Source: Pseudomonadota bacterium (lineage in GTDB: Bacteria > Pseudomonadota > Alphaproteobacteria > UBA2136 > UBA6156). Taken from it: DNA of 64,000 bases. The notes beneath the pieces are model-generated. The model saw only the letters and a program-made list of their open reading frames with translations. It made no database searches and was not told where the DNA came from. Below are positions 34,863 through 52,585 of this stretch, one piece after another. The position numbers were made by a program, and so were the translations under genes. Numbering within the stretch: position 1 is the stretch's first letter; every line of letters starts with the position of its first letter. Location: the NCBI GenBank assembly GCA_016125035.1, contig WGMN01000001.1, forward strand, positions 258,427 to 322,426, in the 5' to 3' direction.

Positions 34863-34873
34863 TGCTGGCAACC

Positions 34874-35602
34874 CTACCGCAAGAATACCAGGAACAGCAC
34901 GCCTTTGTCGCCGGGCTGGCCAGCCGGGGCAAGGCGCAGGTTTTCCATGGAAGCAAAGCGCAGCACGCCCCACTCATCGGTTTTGGGAATGGTGATGGCC
35001 GGGAGGTTGACCTCGTTAGGTTTGGCGTACTCATTACGCACGTGCACCACCAGGCCGGTAAGCTGGGGAGATTGCCAGACCTCGGCGAGATCGAACATCA
35101 TGCCGTTGCCGCGGAACCAGTTGGGGATGACGTAGGTCTCGCGGTTCACTCCAGGGATGTCTTCATCCTGGGCCATGGAGCGGATGAGATCATGCGGGCC
35201 GAAGTTTTTGGAAATGTTACGCTTGACCTGGTCGAGCTCCAGCCCGTTGACGACTTGCAGGAACGAGCGGTAGGGCACGTCGGTGGTGAGCACCACGATG
35301 TAGGTGTTGCCCGATTGGCCGGTGAGGAACATGCGTGTGGCCATTTTGGGCAGCAGCGAGCGCATGCGGAAGGCGCGGTTGTTGTAGCCATCGACCACCA
35401 GGATATCGACGTAGCTGGGGTCTTCCAGCGTGACGTTGGTGATGGGTTCGGGGAATTCCACATGAGAGACGTCGTCTTGCGTCAGCCCGATGGTGAGGGT
35501 TTTGGTGGGCCCCTGCCACACCAGAGTATCGGCATGCAGCGCGGCAAAGGGCAGCGCCAGCAGGGCGAGGATGAGCAGGAGGGGGCGCAAGGCGTTCTTC
35601 AT
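34874..35602 (-). CDS. TraK/VirB9-like secreted protein
   Basis: 242 aa, the same length as F TraK, with a signal peptide and a β-rich body. It sits between the TraE-like gene and the lytic transglycosylase. Confidence 0.4.
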   Translation of the reverse strand: MKNALRPLLLILALLALPFAALHADTLVWQGPTKTLTIGLTQDDVSHVEFPEPITNVTLEDPSYVDILVVDGYNNRAFRMRSLLPKMATRMFLTGQSGNTYIVVLTTDVPYRSFLQVVNGLELDQVKRNISKNFGPHDLIRSMAQDEDIPGVNRETYVIPNWFRGNGMMFDLAEVWQSPQLTGLVVHVRNEYAKPNEVNLPAITIPKTDEWGVLRFASMENLRLAPAGQPGDKGVLFLVFLR

Positions 35603-35696: not shown

Positions 35697-36359
35697 TTAC
35701 TGGGCCGGCGGCGCGGCGGCCGGAGCGGGAGCGCCGCCGGGAGTGGTGAGCGGTGTTTCCTTATAAGAACTGAGTTTGAGGCCGTAGGGGTTGGCCGGGC
35801 TGACTTGCGTTTTCTCGAACTTCATGGCGATTTGCAGGGGCACGTTTTCCGCCACCGTGCCGGCGATGATGGTGTTGAGCTGGCCGATGATGGTGACCTC
35901 GCGTATGTCTACGCCGTTCTCGCTGTATTTTTTGACTTGCAGGGAGGATTCGTCTGGCACGAAGAGCGATGAGCGGCGGTCGGCGGTGGAATCGCGGATC
36001 TTACGCTCGAAGTAGGGCACGGAGTCGGTGAGCAGGGCGGGGGAAAAGAAGCTTCTGATCGCGCTGTATTGTTTGGCCATGGTCTCGGGCGTGAAGGAGT
36101 TGATGGACTGGGTGATGTAGCTGGTGAACATCATCGTCAGGCGGTCGTCTTCCGTGGGGCTGTAGAGCCCGGTGGCGGCGCCGGGCACCACGATGACCGG
36201 CAGGCTCATGCGGCGTTGCATCAGCTGCGCGTTGAGCGAGGCGTTGCGGCTTAGCTGGCAGGTGGTGACCAGGCCCAGCACGATGACGCAGATGAGCAGC
36301 ACACCGGCGATGCGGTGGGCACGGTCAATGACAGCTCCGGCGCGGGCGACGAAATCCAT
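35697..36359 (-). CDS. TraE/VirB8-like bitopic protein
   Basis: An N-terminal TM followed by a periplasmic domain of about 170 aa. The position follows the TraL-like gene. Confidence 0.35.
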   Translation of the reverse strand: MDFVARAGAVIDRAHRIAGVLLICVIVLGLVTTCQLSRNASLNAQLMQRRMSLPVIVVPGAATGLYSPTEDDRLTMMFTSYITQSINSFTPETMAKQYSAIRSFFSPALLTDSVPYFERKIRDSTADRRSSLFVPDESSLQVKKYSENGVDIREVTIIGQLNTIIAGTVAENVPLQIAMKFEKTQVSPANPYGLKLSSYKETPLTTPGGAPAPAAAPPAQ

Positions 36360-36469: not shown

Positions 36470-36736
36470 CTACATTTCCAGCTTTTTACAAAACCGCGGA
36501 GATGGGCGCATGCGGCCCAGCTGGATGTAGCGGTACATGACCCGCATGGCCAGCCCTTCCGGCTTATCCATGGTGAGTTTGTACATGAAGTAGGCCGCCA
36601 TGGCGCCCAGCAGGATGGACGGCAGCGCCTTGCCGCTGACAAACATGCAGGCGTAGTAGGTGGTGAGGTAAGTCATGACGTATTCAGGCGTGCGGTTGGG
36701 CCTGTCGATATTACGGGGCACGGAGCGCATTTGCAT
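36470..36736 (-). CDS. TraL/VirB3-like small membrane protein
   Basis: About 70-88 aa with one hydrophobic helix and basic flanks. It sits directly after the pilin genes, as traL does in the F plasmid. Confidence 0.3.
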   Translation of the reverse strand: MQMRSVPRNIDRPNRTPEYVMTYLTTYYACMFVSGKALPSILLGAMAAYFMYKLTMDKPEGLAMRVMYRYIQLGRMRPSPRFCKKLEM

Positions 36737-36742
36737 GGCGGG

Positions 36743-37090
36743 TTACTGCACCGTGACCGTGCCGCACGTGCCCCCCAGGCTGCTGACGATGGGGCAGACG
36801 ATGCCGCGGAAACCGTTAAAGACCGTGGGCAGCATGGTGATGATGACCCCGCACAGAATAAGCACCATGCCAAAGCTGGTGTTGCCCTTGGCGCCTATGG
36901 TCCACACGCCGAGGAAGGCCACCGCCAGCCCGAAAGCCAGGCCCAGTTTGCCGGTGATGATGAGCTTGAGCAGTGCAAGCTCGGCACTGCCGACAGGTGC
37001 CTGGGCGGCCTCGGCCCAGCCCATGGAAACGGCGCCGATACCCAGAAGTATCAGCGCCGTAAAGAGGAGCAGGGTTGCGCGCGTTGGCAC
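36743..37090 (-). CDS. VirB2/TrbC-like T4SS pilin (paralogue 1)
   Basis: 115 aa. A signal peptide is followed by two hydrophobic helices separated by a short loop. Confidence 0.55.
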   Translation of the reverse strand: MPTRATLLLFTALILLGIGAVSMGWAEAAQAPVGSAELALLKLIITGKLGLAFGLAVAFLGVWTIGAKGNTSFGMVLILCGVIITMLPTVFNGFRGIVCPIVSSLGGTCGTVTVQ

Positions 37091-37110
37091 AGCTTAACCT
37101 TTGCCGCGGC

Positions 37111-37464
37111 TTAGCGGCCGACGTCTTGCACGGTGGTGGTGCTGCCGCCGAACTGAGTGAGCACGCCGGACGCGAGGTCATGCATACCGTTGAAGATGCC
37201 GGGGACCAGGGTGATGAGCACACCGCCGATGATCATGACGATGCCGGCGCCGGTCTCTTGCTTAACGATCCACGTCCACAGGCCGAGGATGGTGATGGCC
37301 AGGCCGATGAAGAAACCGATACTGCCGGTGATGGAATCCTGCAGGGTGCCGAGGATGGTGTTACCCGCGTCGGCGGCGTTGCCGGCGGCGAAAGAGGGCT
37401 CTACCACCGCAGCAAGCATGAGCATGGCAGCGGCCATTGCAAAGAAGGTATGACGATTGACCAT
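37111..37464 (-). CDS. VirB2/TrbC-like T4SS pilin (paralogue 2)
   Basis: 117 aa with the same architecture. It is clearly related to 36743-37090 (…LITLVPGIFNG… versus …IITMLPTVFNG…). Confidence 0.55.
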   Translation of the reverse strand: MVNRHTFFAMAAAMLMLAAVVEPSFAAGNAADAGNTILGTLQDSITGSIGFFIGLAITILGLWTWIVKQETGAGIVMIIGGVLITLVPGIFNGMHDLASGVLTQFGGSTTTVQDVGR

Positions 37465-37540
37465 AGGTTGTGTACTCCTGTTTGATGTTATTGTTGGGTG
37501 GGGTTAAGCCTTTGACAAGCCCCTCTTTTACCGTGAGCGC

Positions 37541-39130
37541 TTATTTTTTGGCGGCGGAGGGGGTGTCGGTGACCACCAGAAGGTGAGATTTTTCAAACTG
37601 GGTAAAGGTTAGCGTGATGTTGTGGGCGGCCTTGACCTGCGCCGCCAATTGGGCCAGCACCTGTTGCACCGGCGCCTCAGCGGTGAGGGACCACTTTTCG
37701 GCCATAAGGTACTGGTTTTCTGGGGAAAGTTGCCAATCGGCCTGCCATTTCTCGCTGCCGTGGGCCGCCGCCTGTGCCAGCACGGCATCGGTGAGGCCTT
37801 GCAGCGACTGGTTTTTGGCGTGGACGGTGACCATGACGTCGTCGAGCGCCACCGGCCCGGCCGCGGGCTCTACCTGGTTGGCGTTGAGCATGTCGTGCAC
37901 AGATTGGCCGGCGCGCAGGGCCAGGGCGCGGTCCATCATGGTTTCAGCCTCGGCCTTAAGGCGCTCGGCTTCGCGCAGTTTGGCCTGTTGCTCTTGAATT
38001 TGGGCGGCGTTGGCGAGTTGCTCGGCCTCGGCGATCTTGGCTGCGGCGGCGGCGATGAGCTGGCGGCGGGAATCATCCGCCTGGGCCTCGGCCTGCTTGA
38101 GGTTTGTGCTTAGGCTGCTGATCTTGTTTTGGTAGGCCTTTTCCTTCTGGCCTTTTTCCGCTTGCAGCTGCTTGGCCAGGGCCTCGAACTCTTGCAGGCG
38201 TTTTTGCGTGGCTTCCAGCTCGTCTTGCAGTTGCGCCTCGTGCTGGCGGCGGGTGGCTTCTTCCGCGCTGGTTTGCGCGCGGGTGGTGGCGGCGCGTTCC
38301 AGTGTTTCTGCATGGCGGCGCTGCTCTTCCTGGATCTGGCGCTCGCGCTCGCGCAGTTTGGCCGAGAGTTGGGCGATGGTTTCTTGCTCTGAAGCCGCGC
38401 GTTTTTCGTCGGCGATGCGGGCCAGGTTGCGCGCGGCGGCGGCGTCGGCCTCGCCCATGCGGGCGGCGGCGGTGTTATCCACCGCTTGCCAGGTGCCGAG
38501 TTGCTCGACCAGGGGATCGACCTTGGGGGCGGGTTTTTGCTCCACCACGTGTTTGGGCAGGAGATCTTGCTGCGCAGGCGCCACCTGCGAGACCTTGGCC
38601 GCCGGTTGGCCGATGTTGCTGCCCGGTGCCATGGGCTTGGGCTGGGGCAGCTCTTCCTGCGGGTGGGCGGGAGGCATTTTGGCCAGCAGCTCGGACGCCA
38701 CCTTGACGTTGGGCAGGGCCGGCAGGCTGGAGGTGGCACGGGCGGGCAGCGGCGTGGGGGAATCGAAGAAGGTGAGCGCGATGGAGGGGTCGGCCGCGCG
38801 GGCGTCGGCGGCGGTGGAGCCGTCGAAGAGCATTTGCGCAGGCTCGCAGGGCTCGCCGTTGGCATCGTAGAGGTAGCGGTTGCCGGAGAGGCTGCCCTCC
38901 ACCATCACCCCCAGGCCGGGGCCGGAGCAGTCGGCCGTGAGGCCACCCACCGCCGCCGCCTGCAGCGAGCCCGGCACCATGGCCGAGCTGGCCAGCAGCA
39001 CGCCGCTGTCGGCGCCGCGGGGGGCGGGCGAGCCGTCGGCCAGCGTGGCGGAGCGCCCGGCGCAGCCACCGAGCACGGCAAGGCCGGCGATGGCCGCGAG
39101 CAACGCCGGAGTGGGGCGGACCTTTTGCAT
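37541..39130 (-). CDS. coiled-coil lipoprotein with conserved C-terminal domain (paralogue A)
   Basis: Lipobox LGGC, a long E/Q/A-rich coiled coil and the C-terminal stretch W..LSPENQ…QQ…ITLTF…LLVVTD. Confidence 0.6.
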   Translation of the reverse strand: MQKVRPTPALLAAIAGLAVLGGCAGRSATLADGSPAPRGADSGVLLASSAMVPGSLQAAAVGGLTADCSGPGLGVMVEGSLSGNRYLYDANGEPCEPAQMLFDGSTAADARAADPSIALTFFDSPTPLPARATSSLPALPNVKVASELLAKMPPAHPQEELPQPKPMAPGSNIGQPAAKVSQVAPAQQDLLPKHVVEQKPAPKVDPLVEQLGTWQAVDNTAAARMGEADAAAARNLARIADEKRAASEQETIAQLSAKLRERERQIQEEQRRHAETLERAATTRAQTSAEEATRRQHEAQLQDELEATQKRLQEFEALAKQLQAEKGQKEKAYQNKISSLSTNLKQAEAQADDSRRQLIAAAAAKIAEAEQLANAAQIQEQQAKLREAERLKAEAETMMDRALALRAGQSVHDMLNANQVEPAAGPVALDDVMVTVHAKNQSLQGLTDAVLAQAAAHGSEKWQADWQLSPENQYLMAEKWSLTAEAPVQQVLAQLAAQVKAAHNITLTFTQFEKSHLLVVTDTPSAAKK

Positions 39131-40527
39131 TAGTCGGAGATTACAATAATGCGGTCGTTGTCGAACAGGCTGAAGGTTATTTTTATGCCTCTCTCGTTGA
39201 CCAGATACTGCGCGAGGTAGTTTACGAACTGCTGGAAGCTGGTTTCCACGTCCAGGCTGAAGCGCTGGGTGAGGATGTCTTGGTTTTCAGGCGAGATCTT
39301 CCATTTGAGGCGCCAGGGACCGATGAAAGGTTCGGCACGTTTGACCACCATGGTCATGATGTCTTCCAGGGTTTTGGAATCCTCGTGCACCACCACGCGG
39401 TACTGGCGGATATCGACCCAGTCGGTATGGGTGCGGGCGGTGGTGAGGTTGGCGCTGCCGGGCAGCGGGCCGGAGGCCGGGGCGATGTTGGCGAGCTGTT
39501 TGTCGGATGGGATGACGCCCGGCGGCAGCGGCTGGGCAACTTCCAGCCCGGCAGAGGCGATGTTGACGTCTTGCTGCGCGGTGGCCTGGGCCTTGGCTTG
39601 CTGGGCGAGCTGGTCGTTGACCACTTTGCGGATGGCGAAGACGATGCGGTCGTCTTTCTTCACAGCGGTGGTGGCGGCCTCGGCCAGGGCCTTTTGCATG
39701 TCGGGGTCGGAATCCTTGACGGCGGTGCGGGCGATGGTGCGGATATAACCTTCTGAGTCTTTGACGCTTTGCAGGGCCAGGGCGCGCATTTGCGGGGCGG
39801 AGTCGGCCACCCGTTCGTCTACCAGCGTGGCAATGCCTGGTTGGGACGCGGAGACGGCCTGTTGGGCGATGGCCGCCATTTGCGGCATGGCTGAAGACAC
39901 CGTTTGCGCCGCGATGGCCTGGATGCGCGGCTCGGCCTGCTGGACCTGCCGGGCGGCGATGGCCGCGACCTGTTGCGGCTGGAGAATGGTTTGGCGCTGG
40001 GCCGCCAGCTGCGCCCGCGTGCCGGAGACCTGGTTGGCGAGCGCCGCCAGCTGGGTTTGCGTTTGCTCGCGCGTGAGGCCGACGATATCGCGCTGCGCGG
40101 ACAGCTGCTGGTTGACGGCTTGCTGGGTGCCGTTGTTGGCGCGCAGCACCTCGCTGGTTTGGCTGAGCAGGGTATCGGTGCGGTTGGCGAGGGTGTTAAA
40201 CCGCGCGTCGATATCGGCGATGGTTTGGCGTTTGACTTGCTCGGCCACCGTGCGCGCCACCTCTTCTGGTGTGGGGGGAGGCACCGCCGCCTGGCTGCGG
40301 GTGATGACCACCTTGCCGGTCATCGGCTGGGGAATATCGTATTGCGGGCCCTGGTTGCTGGCCACCTGCACCGGCTGGTAGACGGCGGGGAGATCGGACA
40401 GCGCGAGTGCGGGCGCAGGCGCCGAGTGCGTAGGCGCGGCACAGCCAGCCAGAACAAGGCCCAGGGCGGTGGCGGTACGGGCGTGGCGCAATGTCATCAT
40501 GACGATTCTGGCCAAAGTGTGCCTCAT
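39130..40527 (-). CDS. coiled-coil lipoprotein with conserved C-terminal domain (paralogue B)
   Basis: Lipobox LAGC, Q/A-rich repeats and the C-terminal stretch W.L.W.ISPENQ…QQF…ITFSLF…IIVISD, clearly related to paralogue A. Confidence 0.6.
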   Translation of the reverse strand: MRHTLARIVMMTLRHARTATALGLVLAGCAAPTHSAPAPALALSDLPAVYQPVQVASNQGPQYDIPQPMTGKVVITRSQAAVPPPTPEEVARTVAEQVKRQTIADIDARFNTLANRTDTLLSQTSEVLRANNGTQQAVNQQLSAQRDIVGLTREQTQTQLAALANQVSGTRAQLAAQRQTILQPQQVAAIAARQVQQAEPRIQAIAAQTVSSAMPQMAAIAQQAVSASQPGIATLVDERVADSAPQMRALALQSVKDSEGYIRTIARTAVKDSDPDMQKALAEAATTAVKKDDRIVFAIRKVVNDQLAQQAKAQATAQQDVNIASAGLEVAQPLPPGVIPSDKQLANIAPASGPLPGSANLTTARTHTDWVDIRQYRVVVHEDSKTLEDIMTMVVKRAEPFIGPWRLKWKISPENQDILTQRFSLDVETSFQQFVNYLAQYLVNERGIKITFSLFDNDRIIVISD

Positions 40528-40587
40528 GCGCCAAAAGCGGCCAATATCCGGCCCCCGGAATACACTACGGAGTGTGGGAAATGCACA

Positions 40588-40923
40588 TCAGCAGGTGATT
40601 AAAAAAAGGGCAGCGAGGGCGGCACCTGCGGCGCACGCCGCCTCTACCCACAAGCTGGCGGCGCCGATGGGCGTGCCGCAATGCCGGCAGCGGCCGCGCA
40701 GCGCCAGCCAGCTGAAGACGGGAATGAGATCGGCAACCCCCAGCACCGTGCGGCACTGGTTGCAGCTGCTGGGCGGGTGGCGCAGCGAGATGCCGCGCGG
40801 CAGGCGGTAGGCCGCGCAGGTGATGAAAGAGCCGAGCACGCCGCCAAACAGCGCGGCCACCAGCGGCCAGAACCAAGGCCAATGCTGGTGGATGGCGCAG
40901 GATGCCTGGAAAAACCAGCCCAA
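40588..40923 (-). CDS. prepilin peptidase N-terminal (zinc-binding) domain only; catalytic A24 domain absent
   Basis: GSFITCAAYRLP, SSCNQC and DLIPVFSWLALRGRCRHCG match the PilD/GspO N-domain. The ORF stops right after the second TM helix. No hydrophobic remainder is present in any frame downstream. Confidence 0.6.
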   Translation of the reverse strand: MGWFFQASCAIHQHWPWFWPLVAALFGGVLGSFITCAAYRLPRGISLRHPPSSCNQCRTVLGVADLIPVFSWLALRGRCRHCGTPIGAASLWVEAACAAGAALAALFLITC

Positions 40924-40934
40924 GGCCCCCTGCC

Positions 40935-42014
40935 CTAGCCGCAGGTGGGGTTTACCGCCGCGGTATCATCATTAACCGTGGTGATGCGCGCCGGCAGCTT
41001 GTTGGAGCCCGCGCCGGGGCGGGCACCGCAACCGCCGCCGGAGTTACGCGGGCGCGGGTTGCTGAAGTAGTAGAACGCCTTGGGTTCGTCATCGGTGCCC
41101 AGTTGCAGTGCCGAGCAGCAGAAGTCATCCGGCAGGCCGAGCAGGTGCATGAGGCCTTGCATGGCGCTGCGGCGGGTGGCGTCATTCTGGCTGTTATCCA
41201 CGTAAATGGTGGCGTTGTAGTAGGTGGCGGAGTCGGCCTGGGCGGCCACCGCCAGCGACTTGGGATAGTAGACGACCAGCTCGGGCGCGCCGTTATCGCA
41301 GGTGGCATCGCCGGTGAGGCCGGTGGCAGGGTCTTTCGGCAGGGCGTTGCAGGTAGCGATTTTGTTGGCGTAGGCGTTTTTGGAGTAAGACTCCAGCGAT
41401 TGGGCGACGCGGTCGAGGCGTTGCAGCGTGAGGTTGTAGCGGTCGAGCTTTTCCGGGTAGTCGGTGAAGCGGGTCATGATGTCGTCATCGGACGGTTGGA
41501 GTGCGCTGAAGGTTGAGACCTCTCTGCCCGAGAGGTGGGACCACCAGGTGACGTCGTCGGCCGCCGCGAGGGCCGTGCCCTGCACCGCGATGCCGGGACC
41601 GGCGGTGGTTTGCCCGTTGGGGCCCGAGGAAATGAGTGTGGCGTAGTAGATCTCCACCGGGCTGCCTTGCAGGTTGCGCGAAGGGTCTTTGTACATGATG
41701 TAGGAGCGCGGGCGGCCCCAGACGTCGTTCTCCATCTGGCTGGTGGAGAGGTTGGTGTAGCCGCCGAGATCGGTGAACCAGGTATCTTCAGCCGGCAGGA
41801 CGTTTTTATCGGCCAGGTAGGCTTGCAGGGCCTTGCGGATCTCTAGCTGGGTGTTCTCCTCGCTTTGGATGTCGCGCTGGCGGATGAACTGGAAAATGGC
41901 AGGTGTGCTGATGCTGACCAGCACCGCCAGCACCGCGATGACGATGACCATCTCTGCCAGAGTGAAGCCGCGGCGGCAGGAGGCAAGGGTAGAAGACAGC
42001 ATGGGCGTTTTCAT
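40935..42014 (-). CDS. large prepilin-type pilin/pseudopilin (359 aa)
   Basis: Class III signal RRG|FTLAEMVIVIAVLAVL with Glu at +5. Confidence 0.7.
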   Translation of the reverse strand: MKTPMLSSTLASCRRGFTLAEMVIVIAVLAVLVSISTPAIFQFIRQRDIQSEENTQLEIRKALQAYLADKNVLPAEDTWFTDLGGYTNLSTSQMENDVWGRPRSYIMYKDPSRNLQGSPVEIYYATLISSGPNGQTTAGPGIAVQGTALAAADDVTWWSHLSGREVSTFSALQPSDDDIMTRFTDYPEKLDRYNLTLQRLDRVAQSLESYSKNAYANKIATCNALPKDPATGLTGDATCDNGAPELVVYYPKSLAVAAQADSATYYNATIYVDNSQNDATRRSAMQGLMHLLGLPDDFCCSALQLGTDDEPKAFYYFSNPRPRNSGGGCGARPGAGSNKLPARITTVNDDTAAVNPTCG

Positions 42015-42947
42015 CTACAGGGTTCCTTTCAGGTTTATACTATAGCTTAAACTGGAGGCCGGGCTACCCCACGGGGTGGGAGAGGTGGCGTTGTTGGTGA
42101 GGCGCAAGGTGAGTGAGGAATCTGGGTTGGCGATGCTGGTAATGGCCAGCTTGCCGCCGCCGGGGAGGGTTTTTTCCAGCAGGCGGAAATCTTCGTCTAC
42201 CCCCAGCAGGCGGCGGTTGGCATCCACCGACAGGTCGAGAAAGCGCGGGGCGTTGGGATCGTTCGCCATCAACGTGGTGAAATCGAGCGTGAGGTTGGCG
42301 GAGCCGCTTTGCAGCTGGGTGAGGTATTGATTCATGATCGTGGTGCGGTAGGCGTTGACCTGCTCTTGGTAATAGCGCAGTTGCGCGCTGGCGATGCGGC
42401 CGAGGTGCTGGCGCACGTTGGCCCAGTTATCGCGCTGGGCGTCTTCATTGGTGAAGGTGATGACGATGTCGTCGGAGCCCACAGGCGGCAGGATGCCTTG
42501 CAGGGCGGAAATGCTGCCGACCGCGGGGATGGTGGTCTCCAGCTTATGGTTGGGGCCGCTGGAGATGAGCGCCACGCCGGTGACCGGCACCACCACCGTA
42601 TCGCTGGGGGGATTGCTGTAGAGCACGCGATTTTCGCGCACCATAAGGCCTTGCATGGGTTGGCCCCAGGGGTCGAGCGTGGGGTCGGCCCAGCGGCCGG
42701 TGCCGAGTTGGGCGAGATCTGGCGTGGTGCGGATGAAGGCGAGGATGTCGGTTTGGCTGGAGGGGGCGAGCTCGAAATTATCCAGGGTGATGTTCTGGGC
42801 CACTTTGCGCACCGCGTTCATGTAATCCTGTGCGGCGTCGACACGCATGCGCGACAGCTGGGCCGTGCTTTCTCCGGCACCCACGATGATGCCGCCCGTG
42901 ACTGACAGGAACAGCGAAAAAATGGCAAGGAACAGCATTGCCTGCAT
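42015..42947 (-). CDS. membrane-anchored periplasmic pilus-associated protein (310 aa)
   Basis: An N-terminal hydrophobic helix with no canonical prepilin cleavage motif. The start is translationally coupled to the upstream gene. Confidence 0.45.
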   Translation of the reverse strand: MQAMLFLAIFSLFLSVTGGIIVGAGESTAQLSRMRVDAAQDYMNAVRKVAQNITLDNFELAPSSQTDILAFIRTTPDLAQLGTGRWADPTLDPWGQPMQGLMVRENRVLYSNPPSDTVVVPVTGVALISSGPNHKLETTIPAVGSISALQGILPPVGSDDIVITFTNEDAQRDNWANVRQHLGRIASAQLRYYQEQVNAYRTTIMNQYLTQLQSGSANLTLDFTTLMANDPNAPRFLDLSVDANRRLLGVDEDFRLLEKTLPGGGKLAITSIANPDSSLTLRLTNNATSPTPWGSPASSLSYSINLKGTL

Positions 42948-43009
42948 GGGTGGAACCTCCTTTCTGGCCAGTTGCTTATACCGGCCTGCACCAGCGCCGA
43001 CTTACAGGG

Positions 43010-43594
43010 TTACTCCACCCCCGGAATACTGAGCCGGTGCAAACCGTAAATGCTTTTGAATTCCACGATTTTAGGGTGGATGGCGATGATGGTGAGATCG
43101 AGCGTGGGGTTGGCTTCCAGGCGCTTGTTAAGCTTGTTTTCCAGCAGGTTGGCGGCGTCGCTGTCGTACTTGCGCAGTTCATCGAGGGCGGCGTCGGCGT
43201 TCTGGGTGCGGGCAAGGGCCACGCGCACCTGGCTGCCGACCCCCATCCACTGGTTATATATCAATACTTTAGGGCCCGCCGCGCCATCTACCCGGCCGCC
43301 CATTTGCAGGCCCTGCAACTGCGGCTGGAAGGCGCTTTTGCTGTTGAGGATCTGCTCGGCCTGGTGCAGCGCCTGCAGGCGGGCGATGCGCAGGGCCTCG
43401 GCCTCGACGTCGAGGGTGGAGGAGACCTCCTCCACCTTAGCCTTAACTTGCGGGAACGGGCTGGGCTGGCCGCTGTAGGTGGGAACGACAGTGGCCGAGG
43501 TGGAGTTGGCCGCCTTCCACAAAATGATGCTTTGGCCCCACGCCAAGGGCGAGAGCAAAACCAGCGCGGCGACGAGGGCGAGGTGTTTGATCAT
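43010..43594 (-). CDS. periplasmic protein (GspC/PilP-like by position)
   Basis: Signal peptide MIKHLALVAALVLLSPLAWG. The assignment is by position only. Confidence 0.4.
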   Translation of the reverse strand: MIKHLALVAALVLLSPLAWGQSIILWKAANSTSATVVPTYSGQPSPFPQVKAKVEEVSSTLDVEAEALRIARLQALHQAEQILNSKSAFQPQLQGLQMGGRVDGAAGPKVLIYNQWMGVGSQVRVALARTQNADAALDELRKYDSDAANLLENKLNKRLEANPTLDLTIIAIHPKIVEFKSIYGLHRLSIPGVE

Positions 43595-44106
43595 GACGGT
43601 TGGCCCGGAGATTTTTTATCCAGCCCGTAGATCTTGCCGGTAAGGCGCATGTGCACCTTGTTTTTTTGCCCGTATGACGGTGTGAGCTGAATGAGGTTGA
43701 TGACGATTTTTTTGGTGTTGTGCAGGCGGTCGGCCAAATAGAGCGCGGTGGAGTAGTCGAGGTCGCCCTCGATGCTGACGTTGCGCACGTAGAGGTTGTT
43801 CTCGCCCACGGTGCGGACCTCGCGCGAATCAACCGTGAAGTTGATGTCGGTTTGCTCTAGCCCCAGGTGGCGCAGGATGTCGAGCTGGGTGGCGGTTTGC
43901 TCGTCGATGGTGAGTTGGTCGAGCTCGGTGAGGGCGGCGGACAGGCGCGCGGCGTTATCGAGCTCTTGGTTCAGGCGGGTGAGCTGGTTTTGGCGGGTGA
44001 GGATCTCTTCCTCGATACTCTGGCCGGAGAAAAAGATGAATGCCGAGAGCGCCATGAGCGCGGCCAGCGTGACGAGCATGATATTGCGGTAGGAGCTGCG
44101 GGTCAT
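43591..44106 (-). CDS. GspM/PilO-like bitopic assembly protein
   Basis: 171 aa with an N-terminal TM, a coiled coil and a small C-terminal domain. Confidence 0.45.
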   Translation of the reverse strand: MTRSSYRNIMLVTLAALMALSAFIFFSGQSIEEEILTRQNQLTRLNQELDNAARLSAALTELDQLTIDEQTATQLDILRHLGLEQTDINFTVDSREVRTVGENNLYVRNVSIEGDLDYSTALYLADRLHNTKKIVINLIQLTPSYGQKNKVHMRLTGKIYGLDKKSPGQPS

Positions 44107-45398
44107 TGCGGCACCTCGGTGGAGGAGGGTGGGGGTTGGGTGGGAAGCGCCGCAGGGGGAGCCACCGCCCCCGTGGCGGAGACCATGGTAAGGGAGGCCT
44201 CTGCCTGTGCCGTGGGCGAGACCGCGCGCAGGTCTTCAGCGGTGAGGGTGACCGAGACCTGCGCCTGCTGGAGCATTTGCGGGGTTGGTTTTTCCGCCCC
44301 CTCGGTTTGCACGGCGATGGAGAGTTGGGTTTGGTCGCCAGGCGTGCCGGTGCGTTGCAGCGTGCGCACCCACGGCTGGTTGGCGATGACGTGTTGCGCG
44401 CGGCGCTCTTGCGCGAAGAGCAGTTTATCCAGCGTGTGGTTGAGGATGATATCGACCGTCTCTTGCTGCGGAGCCTTCATGCCCGAGCGGGGAGAGTATT
44501 CCGCCGGGCTGAACTTGATTTGGGTGAGGTCGCCAAATTGGGCGGCGGTGCGGGCGGCGGCGTCTACGATGCCGGAGGGCTGCTGGTTGAAGGATTTGGC
44601 CATGCTGTCGAGCAGCTCTTGCGGGCGGCGGATGTGGCCGGTGCTTTGGTTGATCTGGATACTGTTGATGCGTTGCTGGGTTTGGGTGATCTCGCCCTCC
44701 AGCCGCGCGCGCTCGGACCAGTTGGTGAAGTAGAAGGCGGCGCTAGAGATAAGCAGGATGAGCCCGAAGAGACTGCCGGTGAGGTAGATGATGGTGTGGT
44801 CGAGGTGGCGGTAGAGCGGGCGCACGCCGGGCAGCGGCTTGAGGGTGGAGAATGGCACGGGGGTTATCTGGTAAGCCTCCAGCGCCACTTGCAGGGTGCG
44901 GTAGAGCTCGAGCTGGCTGAGCACCGCCACGCACAGGGTGGCGCCGGGGTTGGCCAACACATAGTCGGTAATGGCGTTGACGAGCGCGGCCGAGGCATCG
45001 GAGCCGGTGAGCACCAGTTGCGCGGTGCGCCACATTTGCTGGCCTTCGTCGGTTTGCTCGCGCACGCCGTGGATGATGACCTCGGGGCTGAGGACGTAGA
45101 AGAAGGCCTGGCAGTCGGCCGGGGCGAAATCCTCGGCCAGCCAGACTTTGACCGACTGGCGCATTTCGCGGATTTCGTCCGGCAGGTAGCCGTAGATGTA
45201 GCGTTGGCCGGAGAACACGCGGGCAAGTTGCGGCCCGCGTACCGGGTTGTTGCCCATTTGGCGCGCCACCTCGCCCACGCCGGCGAGGTCTTTGACCACC
45301 TGGATGTGGTCGCGGCCGGGCACCAGCAGAATGGTGGTATCGCCACGGGTCATCTGGCGGAAGGTGATGCTGCGGCGGGCGAGGACCATCAGGCTCAT
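44103..45398 (-). CDS. GspL-like (PilM-PilN-like) bitopic assembly protein
   Basis: 431 aa: a cytoplasmic domain of about 200 aa, a single TM (IIYLTGSLFGLILLISSAAFYF) and a periplasmic domain. Confidence 0.4.
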   Translation of the reverse strand: MSLMVLARRSITFRQMTRGDTTILLVPGRDHIQVVKDLAGVGEVARQMGNNPVRGPQLARVFSGQRYIYGYLPDEIREMRQSVKVWLAEDFAPADCQAFFYVLSPEVIIHGVREQTDEGQQMWRTAQLVLTGSDASAALVNAITDYVLANPGATLCVAVLSQLELYRTLQVALEAYQITPVPFSTLKPLPGVRPLYRHLDHTIIYLTGSLFGLILLISSAAFYFTNWSERARLEGEITQTQQRINSIQINQSTGHIRRPQELLDSMAKSFNQQPSGIVDAAARTAAQFGDLTQIKFSPAEYSPRSGMKAPQQETVDIILNHTLDKLLFAQERRAQHVIANQPWVRTLQRTGTPGDQTQLSIAVQTEGAEKPTPQMLQQAQVSVTLTAEDLRAVSPTAQAEASLTMVSATGAVAPPAALPTQPPPSSTEVPQ

Positions 45399-45400
45399 GG

Positions 45401-46486
45401 CTAGCGGTACTCCATAAGCGCGAAGATGGGGCCCACCAGCGAGGTATAGGTGGCGAGAATGAAGAAGGGCAGGAGCACGGCCATGACGATGAATTTAATC
45501 GTACTTGTGACCTGGCGTATATAGCGTTCAAGCTCAAGCTTATAGGGGGTTTGCAGGTCTTCCACCCGCTCGGCGATGGCGCCGGTGTTCTCGCCCGCCT
45601 GGATGGCGTTGACGAAGGAAGCGCGGAAAGGAATGGCGGAGACGGCGTAGCTCATGCGCAGGCCGTTGCGGTGATCTTCCGCCGCCGCAAGCAACAGGCT
45701 GGCCAGCACCGGGTTGGTGACGCAGCCGGAGAGTTGCTCGAGCACTTGATAGGTTGGCATACCCGACCTTACCAGCGCAGGCAGGAAGTAGACCACCACC
45801 ATGGCGTTAAAACCGACAATCAGTTTACGGCTGACCCCCCACCACAAGGTGAATTTGAGCCAGTAAGGGCGCAGGGCATAGGTGTTGCGGCAGAAAAACA
45901 GGGTGGTAGCCAGCACCAGCACCACAATGGGCTGGAACGGGTGGCTGCGCAGCCAGACCGAAGCCACCCAGAACCATTGCAGGATGAAGGGAAAAGAATT
46001 GTAAGACTCTGGCTTGCGGTCGAGCACCGGCTGGATGACCAGCGGCAACATGATGATGAGCACCCCCAGTGAGAGGATGATGAGCATGATGCCGATGCCC
46101 AGCGGGCCGGCCAGCTTCATCCACAACTCTCGCCGGCCCTGGTATTGAACCTCCATAGCCGACACCAGCGCGGGCACCGCCTGGCGCAGCTGGTTGCTGC
46201 GCTCGGCGGCTTCCACCACCGCCAGCTCTTGCGACTTGAAGCCCAGGCGGGCCTGGGAAATGGCCTGGTAGAACGGTGTTTGGCCGGCCTCCACCTCGCG
46301 CTGGACGAGATCCATTTGCGGGCCGAGGCTGGCGTATTCGTCATGACTGAAGGCCGCGCAGGTGTTGCGCACCGCCTCGGCCAGCGACATCTGCCCGGCG
46401 CCCGCGTTCAACCAGCCGGCCAGCGTCTTGAAAAAATCAATGCGGTCGGAGGTGGAGAGGGATGACTTGCCGATTTGCAGACCCAT
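45401..46486 (-). CDS. GspF/PilC-family inner-membrane platform protein
   Basis: Polytopic protein with two T2SSF-like repeats. Confidence 0.82.
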   Translation of the reverse strand: MGLQIGKSSLSTSDRIDFFKTLAGWLNAGAGQMSLAEAVRNTCAAFSHDEYASLGPQMDLVQREVEAGQTPFYQAISQARLGFKSQELAVVEAAERSNQLRQAVPALVSAMEVQYQGRRELWMKLAGPLGIGIMLIILSLGVLIIMLPLVIQPVLDRKPESYNSFPFILQWFWVASVWLRSHPFQPIVVLVLATTLFFCRNTYALRPYWLKFTLWWGVSRKLIVGFNAMVVVYFLPALVRSGMPTYQVLEQLSGCVTNPVLASLLLAAAEDHRNGLRMSYAVSAIPFRASFVNAIQAGENTGAIAERVEDLQTPYKLELERYIRQVTSTIKFIVMAVLLPFFILATYTSLVGPIFALMEYR

Positions 46487-46547
46487 GGAGGCCCAGTTTC
46501 ACTCTTTTTTTGTTTGGCACGGCCGGCCGTATGGCCTGCTGCTTGGC

Positions 46548-48359
46548 CTAGGTTGCCAGTGTTTCGGCTGAAAGTTCAAGGATTTTCGTCGAGAGCTCGG
46601 CGGCGTCGGTGATGCCGGACTTGATGTGCTGGGCGCCCATCCGCCCCATTGGCTGCCAACCGGCACGGCGGGCCATGTCTTCCAATTCCGTGTAGTTGCG
46701 TTGCGCGCTTGCCTCAATGATTTCACGCGTGGGCTTGAGCCACTCGGCCACCGCGATGCGGCTGTAGTAACCGGTGAAGTTGCAACTGGCGCAGCCTTCC
46801 GGGTTGGCGACGTGCAGGTCGGCGCCCTCGAACGACACGCCGTAGCGGTCGAAAACATAGCGGGTGTAGTCATCCGGCGTGGGTTGCTTGATGCGGCAGT
46901 GGGTGCACAGGCGGCGCACCAGGCGCTGGGCGGCGATACCGCGCACGTATGACAGCATGAAGCCGTTGATGCCGAGTTCGTCCAGCCGGGAAATGGCGTC
47001 GAGCGAGGTGTTGGTGTGCAAGGTGGTGAACACCAGGTGGCCGGTGTTGGCGGCCTCGAACACCAGGCCGGCCATTTCGGGGTCGCGGACTTCGCCGAAG
47101 ATGATCACGTCTGGGTCGGCACGCAGGGAAGACTTGAGCAGTTGCAGGCCGGTGCGGGCAGGGTCTTCGTTGGAGACTTCCATCTGCACCGCGTAGCCGG
47201 GCACGCGTTTTTCAGGCGGGTCTTCGATGGTGTGCACGGACAGCCCCTTGGCCATGGGATTGACGCTGATGACCGCGGCGTGGATGGACTCGGTTTTACC
47301 CGAGCCGGTGGGACCGGTCCAGAAAATGATGCCGTTGCTGGCCATGGCCGCTTGCTTGATCTTATCGATGAACTCTGGCGTGTAGCCGATGACTTCCAGC
47401 GGCATGACATCCGGTTGCAGGCGGCGCAGCACGATGCGCGGCACCGGGCCCAGGCGGCCCGCGTGAGGCTGGATTTGCACGCGCCAATCGTAACCCGAGC
47501 GGGTGAAGGCGCCCTTGTTGGCGTGGTTGAGGTTGACCTTGGGCATGCGCGCCAGGTTTTCGATACGCACGCGCAGTCTATCCAGTTGCTCGGTGGTGAT
47601 GACCTCCTTGGGGTGCACGAAGCCGTCGATGCGGTACTTGATGATGGCGCGCGGCTCGCCCTTGATGGAGGGATCGATGTGGATGTCTGACGCGCGGGCG
47701 TCGATGGCGTTGGTGACCACGCGGTCGAGCAGGGCCTCGGCTTCCATGCCGGAATCGATGCTCTCGGATTCTCCCGACAGCCAGAAGGCGCCCGCGACCT
47801 CGCGCAGGCAGAAGTGCCAGTGCAGGTTGACCCCGTTGGCGAAAAACTCGCGGAGCTGGGACTCCAGCACCAGGTCGCGGGTGGGGCTATCGTGCGCCAG
47901 GTGGATATCGGTGACTTGCTCCTGCTCGTCTTTTTTGATCGCCAGCGGGATGATGCGCTCGCGCCGCAGCAGGGTTTTGAGGCGCGCGGGAAGATCTTGC
48001 CGCAGAGTGTAGGACTCTGGCGGGATATCGAGGATGGAGAGCAGCTCCCTCGATTTATGCGCGCGGGCGATGGCGCGGGCCAGTTGCAGGCGGGTGATGA
48101 CACGTTGGGTGAGGAGCTCCCGCGTGAGGAGTTGTTTGTTCTCGCCGCTTTTGAGCACCTCTTCCAGGCGCTTTTTGGCGACGTTGTCGATGCCGAGATC
48201 GACCGATGCGTTGAGAACTTTTAGGACGTTTTGATAGAACGCGTCGCGGTTGGTGGCCTCCAGGTTGGGGGGAGAATCTTCGGATACCGGGATGTAATCG
48301 GCGATGCCAACGGGCGCCCCGAGGGGGGCGCCAGCGTAATCTTCGGCTGCGGGTGGCAA
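46548..48359 (-). CDS. GspE/PilB-family secretion ATPase
   Basis: Walker A GPTGSGKT, Asp and His boxes, a tetracysteine motif (CxxC…CxxC) and an N-terminal N1E-like domain. The start is uncertain; a TTG at 48359 is the first start codon after the upstream stop. Confidence 0.85.
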   Translation of the reverse strand: MPPAAEDYAGAPLGAPVGIADYIPVSEDSPPNLEATNRDAFYQNVLKVLNASVDLGIDNVAKKRLEEVLKSGENKQLLTRELLTQRVITRLQLARAIARAHKSRELLSILDIPPESYTLRQDLPARLKTLLRRERIIPLAIKKDEQEQVTDIHLAHDSPTRDLVLESQLREFFANGVNLHWHFCLREVAGAFWLSGESESIDSGMEAEALLDRVVTNAIDARASDIHIDPSIKGEPRAIIKYRIDGFVHPKEVITTEQLDRLRVRIENLARMPKVNLNHANKGAFTRSGYDWRVQIQPHAGRLGPVPRIVLRRLQPDVMPLEVIGYTPEFIDKIKQAAMASNGIIFWTGPTGSGKTESIHAAVISVNPMAKGLSVHTIEDPPEKRVPGYAVQMEVSNEDPARTGLQLLKSSLRADPDVIIFGEVRDPEMAGLVFEAANTGHLVFTTLHTNTSLDAISRLDELGINGFMLSYVRGIAAQRLVRRLCTHCRIKQPTPDDYTRYVFDRYGVSFEGADLHVANPEGCASCNFTGYYSRIAVAEWLKPTREIIEASAQRNYTELEDMARRAGWQPMGRMGAQHIKSGITDAAELSTKILELSAETLAT

Positions 48360-48384
48360 GGGAAGGGCGATAGCCGGACCCCCC

Positions 48385-49047
48385 TTATTGAACCGTGTTG
48401 GCGGCGTAGCACACGTTAACAACGGAAGCTGAGCCAAGCGCGCCAGGAGTGGGAGCCGCCGCACCCGAAGTGGCGGGCAGGCAGTCGCTGCCGGTGGGTT
48501 GGTACACCAGGCGGCCTTGGGTGGGGTCTTCCGTGCCGTCGATGGTGCGGTCGGCCTCTTTGGCCTCGGTGAGCGGCATGCTGGAGAACTGGACGATCAT
48601 ATAAACATTGGTGCCGGTAAGCCCCCAGTTGGACGCGGTGCCGGGCATTTGGGTGACCGTGCCGCCGGTGCCGTAGCCGTGGTTGACGCTACCGCCGCTG
48701 ACCGCAAAACCGGGCAGCAGGTTGCGCAGCTCGGACTCGCGGATGTTGCTTTGCCAGGTGACGCCCGACGGCAGCGCGTTGGCCAGGGCCAGCATGTTGT
48801 TGGCGGCGCTGACCGAAGAGATAGCCTCGTGCGGCCAGACGCGCTGGGCGGAATAGAACTGGCCGTTGGCGTCTTCGATCTGGCGGAATTGCGAGCCCAG
48901 CTTGGTGCCGCTGGTGCGGTTGATGAGTTGCCAGCCGATGGTGACGATGATGAGCGTGATAAGGATGGCGATGATGGCGACGATGAGGATCGTCTGGTCA
49001 ATCGTATAACCCTTGCGGTTAGCCAATAGCTTTTGAAAGCGTTGCAT
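48385..49047 (-). CDS. prepilin-type pilin with atypical cleavage region (RKG|YTIDQT…)
   Basis: A short basic leader and a hydrophobic helix ILIVAIIAILITLIIV. It has Asp at +4 and Gln at +5 instead of Glu at +5. Confidence 0.55.
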   Translation of the reverse strand: MQRFQKLLANRKGYTIDQTILIVAIIAILITLIIVTIGWQLINRTSGTKLGSQFRQIEDANGQFYSAQRVWPHEAISSVSAANNMLALANALPSGVTWQSNIRESELRNLLPGFAVSGGSVNHGYGTGGTVTQMPGTASNWGLTGTNVYMIVQFSSMPLTEAKEADRTIDGTEDPTQGRLVYQPTGSDCLPATSGAAAPTPGALGSASVVNVCYAANTVQ

Positions 49048-49123
49048 GAGAGGAACCTCCATTCCTGTTTGTATCGAAGCTAGCACAAGCCAAAACCGAC
49101 TCCCCCTAAAAACAGCGGGGGCG

Positions 49124-51169
49124 TTAATTCAGCCGTTTGACCTGTAGCAAAACTACAAACTCCACTTCTTCGAAGGAAATGCCCTGCTCGTTGGCCAGTT
49201 TGCCCAGCGCCGGAACCTCGCGCAGCAGGGGAATGCCGGACTCGGTATCCACCGCCACGGTTTTGGTGAGGCCGCCGATAACCTTGATCTCGCCGTCGCG
49301 GATACGCACCTTCTGGTCGATGAGGCGGGTGTTGGCCACAGGTGCCACGCCCGCGGTGGTGCCGCTGACGCCGCCGGGGATATCCACCGTTTTGGCCAGA
49401 GAGGTAATGGGGATTTGCAGCGAGATGGTGTTGGGCTCGGAGGGGTTATCGCTGATTTGCGCCGTGGCCGAGAATTGCAGCCCGATGAACTGGTTGCGCT
49501 CTTGCACGTCGGAAGCGGTGCTGGTGGCCGTGCCGGTGGTGGTGGTGGACTGAATAATAAAATATTTTTCGTTGCGGCCATCGATGAGGGTGGCGCGCTG
49601 ACGGTCCATCAGTTCCATCATCGGGTGCATCAGCTCGTAGGTGGTGCCGTATTGCTCGAGCAGGCCGATGACTGCATCCAGGTTGGGGCCTTCGGCACTG
49701 ATGCCGCCCACGGTGGTGAGGTTGGGCGCGGTATAAGTGGCAAGGTCACGCGAGAGGGCCGAGGTGATGCTGCCGATGAAGCTGCCGCTGAGCGCGGCCC
49801 CGCCCTGCTCGCCGCCCACACGCAGGCGGGCACGCTGGTCGAAGTTGCGGGTGCGGCTGACCGCCAGCACACGCGCTTCCAGCAACAGGCGGCGGCTGGC
49901 GATTTCCTGCACGCGGTTGATGATATCGCTGGCTTCTTCCAGCACCGAGCGGGGGGCACGCATTTGCACCAGGCCCACGGATTTGTTGATGCGCACGTAG
50001 CCGCAGCGGTTGCTGTCGGAGTCATTGTCGGCGCTTGAGGATTGCTGCGCGTTGGGCGTGCTGGCGGGGATGGGCATGAACATGTTGGTGTTGGATGCCG
50101 TGGATGACTTGTCTTTATCCTTGCTGTTGCTGCTGGTGGGCGGCGGCAGCAGCTGGGCGGAGGAAGGCATGCCGACCGTTTGCACGTCTTCGGAGTGTTG
50201 GGTGCAGTTGCTCTTGATGAGTTGGTTGAGGTCATCTTCCAGGTCGACCCAGAGGTTGCGCTGGTAGTGAACCTTGACACTGTTGCTGCCGCCAGCCGCG
50301 GTGCTGCTGCCGTCGGAGCCGCTTGAGCTGCTTGAGGAACCGCTGCTGCTGGAGTTGCCGCTGGAGAAATCGGTGGAATAGTTGACCGAGATATTTTCAT
50401 CCCGTTCGGGTTCGTAGAGGTTGACCGTCCATTGGCGTTGGGGCAGGCCGCCGATGGTGACGTAGTCACCCGCGTTGATGAGGCTGAGGCCGAAGGGGGT
50501 GAGCAAGGCCTCGAAAGCATCGTAACATGTTACATCCTTGAGGTTTGTAGTGATGCGGGCAGACGAAAGTTTGTCTTTGTTCTCGGTGATGACCAGGTTG
50601 TAGTTGCACTGCTCGGCCAGGCCGCGCAGGGCTTGCGAGAGGCTGACGTTGGGGCCGGGGTTGAAGCTGGCCAGGCGCGGCTCGGAGGCAGAGGGCAGCA
50701 CGAGGAGGCGGCGCTCGCCCTCTTTAATGATTTGAATATCAAACACATCTTCGATGTAGCTGCGGGCTTCGTCGAAGGTGAGGTTGTTCATCAAAACTGT
50801 TTTGTGGCGGGAGCGGCGCACGCCGTTGCCCCAGCGCACGGCGACGTTGTAGGTGCCGGCAAGTTTTTGCAGAACAGTTTCAGTGTCATACTGGCCGGAG
50901 AGGGTGAAGGTGGCGTTGGCGGCCATTTGGCGTTGCGAGATGGGTTCGCCCATGCCGAGCACGCTGGCATTGCGTTGATTTTCAGTCTCATAGTCTTTGT
51001 AGGGGTTGGCCGGCGAGTTGCGTTGCACGTAGGAAATGCTGTTGCAGGCGCTGAGTGAAACCAACACGATAGCCAGCAAAGCGGCGGCTACAGAGCGCGG
51101 CAGAACGCTGCCGATGGCGGCAAACGGGCGGCAAAGAGCGGCGGCAAAGCTGCGGAAGGCGGCCATTAT
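49124..51169 (-). CDS. secretin (GspD/PilQ family) lipoprotein
   Basis: Lipobox LSAC, a Ser-rich linker and the C-terminal secretin motif GIPLLREVPALGKL. Confidence 0.85.
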   Translation of the reverse strand: MMAAFRSFAAALCRPFAAIGSVLPRSVAAALLAIVLVSLSACNSISYVQRNSPANPYKDYETENQRNASVLGMGEPISQRQMAANATFTLSGQYDTETVLQKLAGTYNVAVRWGNGVRRSRHKTVLMNNLTFDEARSYIEDVFDIQIIKEGERRLLVLPSASEPRLASFNPGPNVSLSQALRGLAEQCNYNLVITENKDKLSSARITTNLKDVTCYDAFEALLTPFGLSLINAGDYVTIGGLPQRQWTVNLYEPERDENISVNYSTDFSSGNSSSSGSSSSSSGSDGSSTAAGGSNSVKVHYQRNLWVDLEDDLNQLIKSNCTQHSEDVQTVGMPSSAQLLPPPTSSNSKDKDKSSTASNTNMFMPIPASTPNAQQSSSADNDSDSNRCGYVRINKSVGLVQMRAPRSVLEEASDIINRVQEIASRRLLLEARVLAVSRTRNFDQRARLRVGGEQGGAALSGSFIGSITSALSRDLATYTAPNLTTVGGISAEGPNLDAVIGLLEQYGTTYELMHPMMELMDRQRATLIDGRNEKYFIIQSTTTTGTATSTASDVQERNQFIGLQFSATAQISDNPSEPNTISLQIPITSLAKTVDIPGGVSGTTAGVAPVANTRLIDQKVRIRDGEIKVIGGLTKTVAVDTESGIPLLREVPALGKLANEQGISFEEVEFVVLLQVKRLN

Positions 51170-52431: not shown

Positions 52432-52585
52432 GGACAGCGTGCTTGACTCTTGTTGGTTGTTTGTGACGCTATCATGTTCAATTGAACCAAAGGAGTAGCC
52501 CCCGCTCATCAAATGATGGGGGTGTGACCAAAACACCATGAAAGTGCTTACGTGTTAAGCAGTTCATGACAAAAACGGAGAGCTG

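Follow-up and report, generated by a model that had tools for sequence, protein, structure and literature searches.

The IncI1 and IncI2 plasmids R64 and TP114 carry genes for a thin pilus (pil) together with a type IV secretion system (T4SS; tra/trb), and in IncI plasmids the pilus aids contact with the recipient and the T4SS carries out the transfer (PMC9045228, PMC12857230). Transfer of PAPI-1 requires the type IV pilus (T4P; PMC12857230, PMC9045228, PMC5297154). Here we describe a locus that pairs the same two kinds of filament in an alphaproteobacterial metagenome-assembled genome (MAG; GenBank assembly GCA_016125035.1). The window, meaning the whole stretch of 64,000 nucleotides (nt) that was analysed, spans positions 258,427 to 322,426 of contig WGMN01000001.1 and is part of a 461-kb contig. 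Within it, a module predicted to specify a type IVb-like pilus (37541-53968) is nested in what appears to be a deeply divergent F-type-like T4SS cluster (17154-37464 and 54023-61196). We document family or fold identities for four pilins and for core parts of both machines, a nesting that is itself conserved, and a chromosomal, vertically inherited context. At a probability of roughly 70%, we infer that both filaments are made and cooperate as two separate machines and not as a mixed pathway.

R64 and TP114 resemble this locus in encoding two unrelated filaments in one element, and their pili share with it a ~200-amino-acid (aa) PilS-type major pilin, a large PilV-type minor pilin, a lipoprotein secretin and a single GspE-type ATPase with a GspF platform. 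In contrast to both plasmids, the T4SS here has F-type markers (TraC_F_IV, TraL/TraE-like proteins, a TraF-thioredoxin) and TrbC/VirB2 pilins instead of Dot/Icm-like parts, the gene order is permuted, and neither a shufflon nor a full prepilin peptidase was found in the cluster. Sequence-level membership of PilS or other R64 families is lacking, plasmid-borne ATPases are less than 37% identical (no plasmid relative of the ATPase lay above 37%), and the locus is chromosomal, with no replicon or relaxase seen. The shufflon was rejected after a repeat search of 36-53 kb gave chance-level GC-rich matches only. The islands of the PAPI-1/pKLC102/SPI-7/ICEclc family are alike in their chromosomal context and in having a type IVb pilus cluster (pilL-pilV) adjoining T4SS genes. 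However, they are integrative and conjugative elements (ICEs) that bear an integrase and a relaxase, sit at tRNA genes and have an MPF_G-type T4SS. Neither an integrase nor a relaxase was found here, where instead the dnaJ-side site is common to MAGs, TraC is more conserved than the flanking housekeeping genes, and VirB2, VirB3, VirB8 and VirB10 homologues are recognisable. The general phenomenon of linked T4P and T4SS genes is thus known, and this system is an undescribed, deeply divergent version of it.

A preliminary description of this DNA had reported the two pilin classes within 36743-49047 and had left the choice between two distinct filaments and a mixed assembly. The genes are indeed there, and all four pilin open reading frames (ORFs) lie on the minus strand at the positions listed below. 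The range was too narrow, with the pilus module reaching to 53968 and T4SS genes on both sides of it. Likewise, the pairing of filament classes is real but less surprising than was implied, as IncI plasmids and PAPI-1-type islands precede it (PMC9045228, PMC5297154, PMC12857230). Between the two options, two distinct filaments are favoured, by inference, because the two pilin classes differ in export signal and each is accompanied by recognisable core parts of its own machine. Families were called with Pfam and NCBIfam profiles at curated cut-offs, with PHROG used in addition for large unknown proteins, and related loci were compared by tblastn of the window proteins against 23 fetched loci. 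The four pilins are as follows (↓, cleavage site).

37111-37464, minus strand: type A TrbC/VirB2-type T4SS pilin, 117 aa, with Sec signal ...SFA↓AGN and motif WTWIVKQETGAG; PF04956
36743-37090, minus strand: type B, a diverged TrbC/VirB2 paralogue, 115 aa, with C-terminal Cys-x11-Cys, assigned by paralogy to type A
40935-42014, minus strand: large minor pilin with a PilV/TcpB-like role, 359 aa, with canonical class III signal G↓FTLAE; PF07963, TIGR02532
48385-49047, minus strand: major pilin with a type IVb-like fold, 220 aa, with non-canonical N-terminus KG↓YTIDQT

The type A protein (GC129_01535) scored 31.8 bits against PF04956 TrbC/VirB2 (cut-off 27.9; E 1.7e-7) and also matched NCBIfam TraA weakly, and the majority of its homologues (n = 41) carry PF04956. 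Type B alone gave no Pfam or NCBIfam match; it is 40% identical to type A over 75 aa (E 4e-16), which bears out the proposed paralogy, and comparison of the two family profiles joined them with an hhalign probability of 99.6% (E 7.6e-25). Two of nine type B orthologues reached PF04956 unaided. Both genes stand at the head of the T4SS genes, directly upstream of TraL/TraE, a position invariant in related loci, and TraB- and TraC-like genes follow. Together, the curated match, the profile link and the position leave very little room for the reading that the two ORFs are generic membrane proteins with two transmembrane (TM) segments and not T4SS pilins. That reading, which is largely refuted, drew on the missing family match of type B and on the structural searches. 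A Foldseek search of the PDB with the type A model was not significant (H-pilus, 9vpe, cyclised, E 3.2; Agrobacterium T-pilus, 8exh, E 9.9; TMt 0.49-0.56), the hairpin being too simple to discriminate, and a PDB-sequence profile search with the TrbC-type pilin profile returned no pilin, its marginal match being a phage coat protein.

As read from the sequence, both proteins have an N-terminal signal-like helix followed by two hydrophobic helices. The AlphaFold 2 model of type A (predicted local distance difference test, pLDDT, 72) consists of a signal helix and a hairpin of helices 30-68 and 71-106, whose loop at 69-70 is the Q-E of KQETG. The type A loop WTWI(I/V)KQETGAG is near-invariant. 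A C-terminal cysteine pair, usually C-P-I-x6-GG-x-C-G, is present in 8/9 type B orthologues and absent from type A, and its pattern suggests a disulphide-closed C-terminal loop. Translation starts at GTG in the type B gene and at ATG preceded by an AGGAG ribosome-binding site in the type A gene. Codon-position GC (third-position GC, GC3, 0.81-0.82; GC1 > GC2) supports these minus-strand frames over overlapping plus-strand ORFs, and both genes are kept at the protein level in more than ten related loci. Some relatives have three tandem TrbC-like pilin genes. An S26 TraF-type peptidase and TraX were not recognised in the window. The single operon assumed earlier is plausible, with all genes on the same strand and the TrbC genes set off by intervals of 76, 20 and 6 nt. 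The first TrbC gene is immediately preceded by a weak promoter-like site, but the frequency of such sites here does not exceed chance, and a promoter/terminator scan gave counts not above those of shuffled sequence, so that it yielded nothing firm on operon structure.

The second filament class is represented by two prepilin-type proteins. The minor pilin begins ...CRRG↓FTLAEMVIVIAVLAVL (RRG↓FTLAEM), with Glu at +5, and its designation as a prepilin was confirmed by matches to the N-methylation hidden Markov models (HMMs) PF07963 and TIGR02532. The class III motif G↓F(T/S)xxE is kept in the 13 orthologues whose N-terminus was recovered, out of 15 examined. The same designation for 48385-49047 holds on structure and context and fails on the N-methylation-motif HMM, which 0/30 family members match. 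Its ATG start at 49047 is preceded by GGAGG at a distance of 8 nt, and all 30 homologues retain Met1. The family N-terminus is the invariant G↓YTIDQTILIVAIIAIL, with Tyr1, Asp4 and Gln5 in place of Glu5, and it retains Gly-1 and the hydrophobic stretch. The mature protein comprises 207 aa beginning at Tyr1, and the family has two conserved C-terminal cysteines. In the AlphaFold model (pLDDT 89), a 55-residue N-terminal helix packs on a beta-sheet, and on this model the protein is a predicted pilin whose fold is type IVb-like and whose N-terminus is non-canonical. A PDB-sequence profile search with it gave only a marginal match, to the geopilin N-terminus (E 0.5).

Two tandem PilV-like minor pilin genes occur in one related locus (L020, 14586-16821) and two tandem major pilin genes in another (L021, 6595-8055), and therefore pilin copy number varies within the clade. 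Between the secretin stop and the start of the major pilin, upstream of the ribosome-binding site, lies a short GC stem-loop (CCCCC-gctgtttttA-GGGGG; 49093-49113, minus strand) that may be an mRNA processing or stability element.

The locus also departs from described arrangements in its prepilin peptidase gene. Reviews describe prepilin peptidases as either bimodular or, in Tad systems, protease-only, and their zinc-binding N-domain is the methylase (PMC10191384, PMC3584216). The pilus module encodes the following instead.

40588-40923, minus strand: N-terminal (Zn-finger/methylase) half of a prepilin peptidase, 111 aa; PF06750 (A24_N), E 2.6e-26

The 111-aa protein is laid out as TM1, a CxxC...CxxC zinc loop and TM2, and then stops. 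The same short gene, with its four cysteines intact, stands at the same place in 14 related loci (L001, L004, L005, L011-L013, L015-L022). In an exhaustive search of a 1.8-billion-protein library, the 30 nearest representative clusters were all shorter than 200 aa, and full-length peptidases appeared only lower in the list. A methylase-only gene of this kind would be a third arrangement, missing from the bimodular/protease-only pair, with any partner protease encoded elsewhere.

The module is contiguous and comprises ~16 genes, of which the remainder are listed here.

45401-46486, minus strand: GspF/PilC-type platform protein; PF00482, E 2.8e-24
46548-48464, minus strand: GspE/PilB-type assembly ATPase; PF00437, E 1.1e-69; true start probably downstream of 48464
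49124-51166, minus strand: secretin with lipoprotein signal; PF00263, E 3e-19; TIGR02519 MshL, E 1.4e-31; at the sequence level, lipobox LVSLSAC after an internal Met
51166-52539, minus strand: PilL/TcpQ-like secreted protein, encoded at the head of the pilus operon; PF10671 TcpQ, E 0.03, below cut-off
42015-42947, minus strand: pilin-like protein without leader, 310 aa, beginning MQA plus a hydrophobic helix; paralogue of the globular part of the minor pilin
37541-40527, minus strand: two coiled-coil lipoproteins, 529 and 465 aa, with lipoboxes LGGC and LAGC; C-terminal domain in common with the PilL/TcpQ-like protein (E 3e-12 and 2e-5)
43010-45398, minus strand: three accessory proteins for pilus assembly (194, 171 and 431 aa), each single-pass or secreted; no significant family match (weak GspM, E 0.027); syntenic in all related loci
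52586-53968, plus strand: divergent 460-aa membrane protein that invariably accompanies the pilus operon; same upstream, divergent placement in 11 loci

Genes for the GspE/GspF-type machine that had been postulated for the prepilin-type proteins are present. The leaderless protein resembles the minor pilin in sequence (BLASTP E 2.8e-4) and keeps its N-terminus in 14 loci; one possible role is that of a tip subunit lacking both leader and Glu5. The three proteins at 37541-40527 and 51166-52539 have a common C-terminal domain of 65-90 aa that is weakly TcpQ-like (E 0.03), and both lipoproteins contain a long Gln/Ala-rich coiled coil. One possibility is that the proteins with this domain are secretin partners. 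The two lipoproteins remain with the pilus genes where the pilus and T4SS clusters are apart (L005, L015).

Type IVb pili of enteric pathogens (TCP, CFA/III, BFP) are similar in their lipoprotein secretin, weakly matching TcpQ-like domain protein, large minor pilin and single ATPase. Type IVb systems in general share with the module the clustering of biogenesis genes and a ~200-aa major pilin with a residue other than Phe at position 1. Unlike TCP, CFA/III and BFP, the module has the invariant Tyr1, Asp4 and Gln5 instead of Glu5, no TcpJ/BfpP-type peptidase found in the cluster beyond its N-domain, three TcpQ-like-domain proteins and a coupling to a T4SS.

The T4SS genes on the two sides of the module are as follows.

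36470-36736, minus strand: TraL/VirB3-like small membrane protein; PF07178, E 4.5e-4, and TIGR02762, E 2.6e-3, both below cut-off; position kept in related loci
35697-36359, minus strand: TraE/VirB8-like protein; PF05309, E 6e-4, and TIGR02761, E 2e-4, both below cut-off
34874-35602, minus strand: conserved secreted 242-aa protein at the TraK position; weak T2SS-T3SS_pil_N match, E 0.012; 67-70% identity in related loci
34074-34973, minus strand: lytic transglycosylase with a VirB1-like role; PF01464 SLT, 23.4 bits (cut-off 21.3)
32295-34064, minus strand: UvrD-like helicase; PF00580 and PF13361; position kept in L001, L003, L004 and L024
29371-31551, minus strand: 726-aa protein with a ParB/Spo0J-like helix-turn-helix region; PHROG ParB-like families, E 2.6e-9; PDB 6sdk Spo0J, E 1.5e-4
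23787-25217, minus strand: TraB/VirB10-like protein; PF03743 TrbI, 51.2 bits (cut-off 35)
20678-23278, minus strand: TraC/VirB4 ATPase with F-type N-terminal domain; PF19044; PF11130 TraC_F_IV, 30.9 bits (cut-off 28.1)
17154-20586, minus strand: two conserved proteins, 820 and 297 aa, the last genes of the cluster; no family matches; syntenic in L024 and L025
54023-61196, minus strand: upstream half of the cluster, with three conserved proteins, a coupling protein, a TraF-like thioredoxin and a Cys-rich 398-aa protein

The tentative TraK assignment is made from position and signal only, and a small lipoprotein gene between the TraB-like and TraC-like genes is a VirB7/TraV-like candidate by position and lipobox. 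In the upstream half, the coupling protein (56671-58131, minus strand) matches PF12696 and PF10412, and the thioredoxin (58596-59606, minus strand) matches PF13728 at 27.4 bits (cut-off 23). The coupling protein (486 aa) begins at its Walker A motif, without a TM segment, and a 108-aa ORF with two TM segments overlaps its start by 20 nt (56671-58476, minus strand); the two may form a split coupling protein. The UvrD-like helicase and the ParB-like 726-aa protein lie between the transglycosylase and the TraB/TraC block and are both kept in relatives. No relaxase being recognisable, these two are candidate DNA-processing factors.

Among F-type systems (F, R27/IncH, the Neisseria gonococcal genetic island, ICEAfe1), the order pilin-TraL-TraE-(TraK)-...-TraB-(TraV)-TraC, the F-type N-domain of TraC and the TraF-like thioredoxin are the same as here, taking the TraL-, TraE-, TraK- and TraV-like candidates as assigned. 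The Neisseria island is a chromosomal F-like system that works with partition-type proteins. The window differs from the F-type systems in its duplicated pilins of TrbC/VirB2 type, in the helicase and ParB-like genes in the operon, in the inserted T4P module, in a TraC ~25% identical to ordinary TraC, and in that TraN, TraU, TraW, TraH and TraG were not recognised.

The order PilL-like protein, secretin, (pilin), GspE, GspF, four accessory genes, PilV-like pilin, half peptidase, two lipoproteins, two to three TrbC genes, TraL and TraE was found in L001, L004, L012, L013 and L017-L022. On the other side, the three genes upstream of the module (54023-56314; p315-p255-p122), which lead to the coupling protein, are kept beside it in 7-8 MAGs. 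The T4SS cluster therefore encloses the pilus module. This nesting between T4SS genes on either side persists among MAGs that share only 50-80% identity in GspF, an order that rarely lasts without co-function, and both systems occur in every genome that could be assessed. This speaks against the two being co-located but functionally independent, with the T4P serving general adhesion, motility or uptake and lying inside the T4SS cluster by chance. We consider such independence unlikely, although in the L003/L005 sub-lineage ~25 kb of a shared 1.1-Mb contig lies between the pilus and T4SS clusters, and in L015, a shorter contig, housekeeping genes directly follow the pilus module and no T4SS genes were seen. 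The major pilin adds to the case for independence, as its gene is unlinked in several genomes and machine-less orphan copies exist in Mesorhizobium. Its orphan homologues (~50% identity) lie in Mesorhizobium and Bradyrhizobium islands; its one plasmid match is an orphan on the mobilizable MOBQ Mesorhizobium plasmid NZ_AP023253, without pilus machine or mating-pair genes, and the chromosomal Mesorhizobium copies are likewise orphans.

Tight linkage can also be read as a sign of a chimeric pathway, in which VirB4 and the coupling protein feed substrate into the T4P, as proposed for PAPI-1 (PMC12857230), or the pilus machine handles the VirB2-like proteins. Only 76 nt separate the last gene of the pilus module from the first TrbC gene, and many outer-membrane parts of the T4SS were not recognised, both of which would suit such a chimera. 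Even so, we judge it quite improbable: unlike in PAPI-1, candidates for VirB2, VirB3, VirB8, VirB10, VirB1 and a VirB7/TraV-like lipoprotein are recognisable, and the export signals differ between the pilin classes, Sec in one and class III in the other.

Under the favoured reading of two cooperating machines, the tandem TrbC/VirB2-like proteins would be Sec-exported membrane pilins polymerised by the VirB3/VirB4/VirB8/VirB10-like machine. For the PilS-like major pilin, the PilV-like minor pilin and the leaderless pilin-like protein, assembly would fall to the GspE ATPase and the GspF platform, with exit through the lipoprotein secretin. By analogy with R64, TP114 and PAPI-1, the most likely task of the T4P is to establish and stabilise contact with a target cell, and the T4SS with its coupling protein would then move a substrate. 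DNA is a plausible substrate, because the cluster encodes the coupling protein, the UvrD-like helicase and the ParB-like protein.

Several observations weigh against this reading. The major pilin lacks Glu5, and none of the 30 family members matches any Pfam or NCBIfam pilin HMM, including PilS PF08805, which we ascribe to Gln at residue +5. Its gene is absent from the pilus cluster in five related loci (L012, L013, L016, L017, L018; secretin-GspE gap), and in another genome (L026) it directly follows the gene for a 3427-aa protein with a Peptidase_S74 domain, ~170-190 kb away from the T4SS genes. No A24 protease half was found in the window, where a six-frame GxGD search yielded no coding-frame match and, of 20 unassigned ORFs of the cluster scanned for TM segments, none was polytopic; pilin maturation would therefore depend on a gene elsewhere. 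On the T4SS side, family scans of the large proteins of the cluster recognised no F-type TraN, TraU, TraW, TraH or TraG and no VirB6-like polytopic protein. Neither a relaxase nor an integrase was recognised at 17-61 kb with Pfam, NCBIfam and PHROG on all large unknown proteins and a regular-expression search for the three-histidine motif, although a very divergent relaxase may have escaped these searches; with no relaxase found, conjugation is not established.

The setting of the cluster is that of a resident chromosomal locus. Minus-strand genes run from ~17 kb to 61 kb by ORF maps and codon-position GC, in a window of ~62% GC. On one side they are flanked by dnaK, dnaJ and sugar-nucleotide/glycosyltransferase genes and on the other by yggT and rph, and the sole tRNA of the window, at 1.6 kb, is far from the cluster. 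A 1.36-Mb contig from another sample (L024) has TraC followed by the same conserved proteins, glycosyltransferases, epimerase, HhH-GPD gene and dnaJ as the window. Identity between the two is 81% for TraC and 86% for the 297-aa protein, compared with 66% for DnaJ, 69% for the epimerase and 61% for the HhH-GPD protein. In a more distant genome (L025; TraC 59%), a T4SS sub-cluster lies between tsaD/rnpA/yidC and flagellin/ruvAB, with T4SS genes scattered among housekeeping genes. The TraC family spans 59-86% identity across ~85 protein clusters from MAGs and then drops to ~25% for ordinary TraC. Homologues of the TrbC-like pilin, major pilin, GspF and TraC were found almost only in uncultured alphaproteobacterial MAGs, and no plasmid relatives of the TrbC-like pilin were found. 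This pattern of conservation is more consistent with strong selection on a vertically inherited locus than with an ICE that has moved recently. A Micavibrio-like predator clade was dropped from consideration, the ARL-13 genome paper reporting no T4SS (PMC3189940).

The pairing of T4P and T4SS is not in itself new, but the pilus here is joined to an F-type-like T4SS with VirB2-type pilins, and the cluster appears to be a fixed chromosomal feature throughout an uncultured alphaproteobacterial lineage. The role of pilin methylation is an open question according to a recent review (PMC10191384), and the half peptidase together with the Glu5-less major pilin family offers a natural system in which to ask what N-methylation and residue 5 do. 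As no relaxase or integrase was found, the locus could represent a conjugation machine and its helper pilus that were domesticated together. A bolder view, which we put forward tentatively as a possibility, is that the supercluster may be a domesticated, vertically inherited core organelle of this uncultured alphaproteobacterial clade. Its two machines would be obligately coupled, contacting and injecting other cells such as prey, hosts or kin or exchanging DNA with them, and its prepilin processing would be split between a stand-alone methylase-type half and an unlinked protease. If true, this would parallel the essential T4P and T4SS pair of the epibiotic Saccharibacteria.

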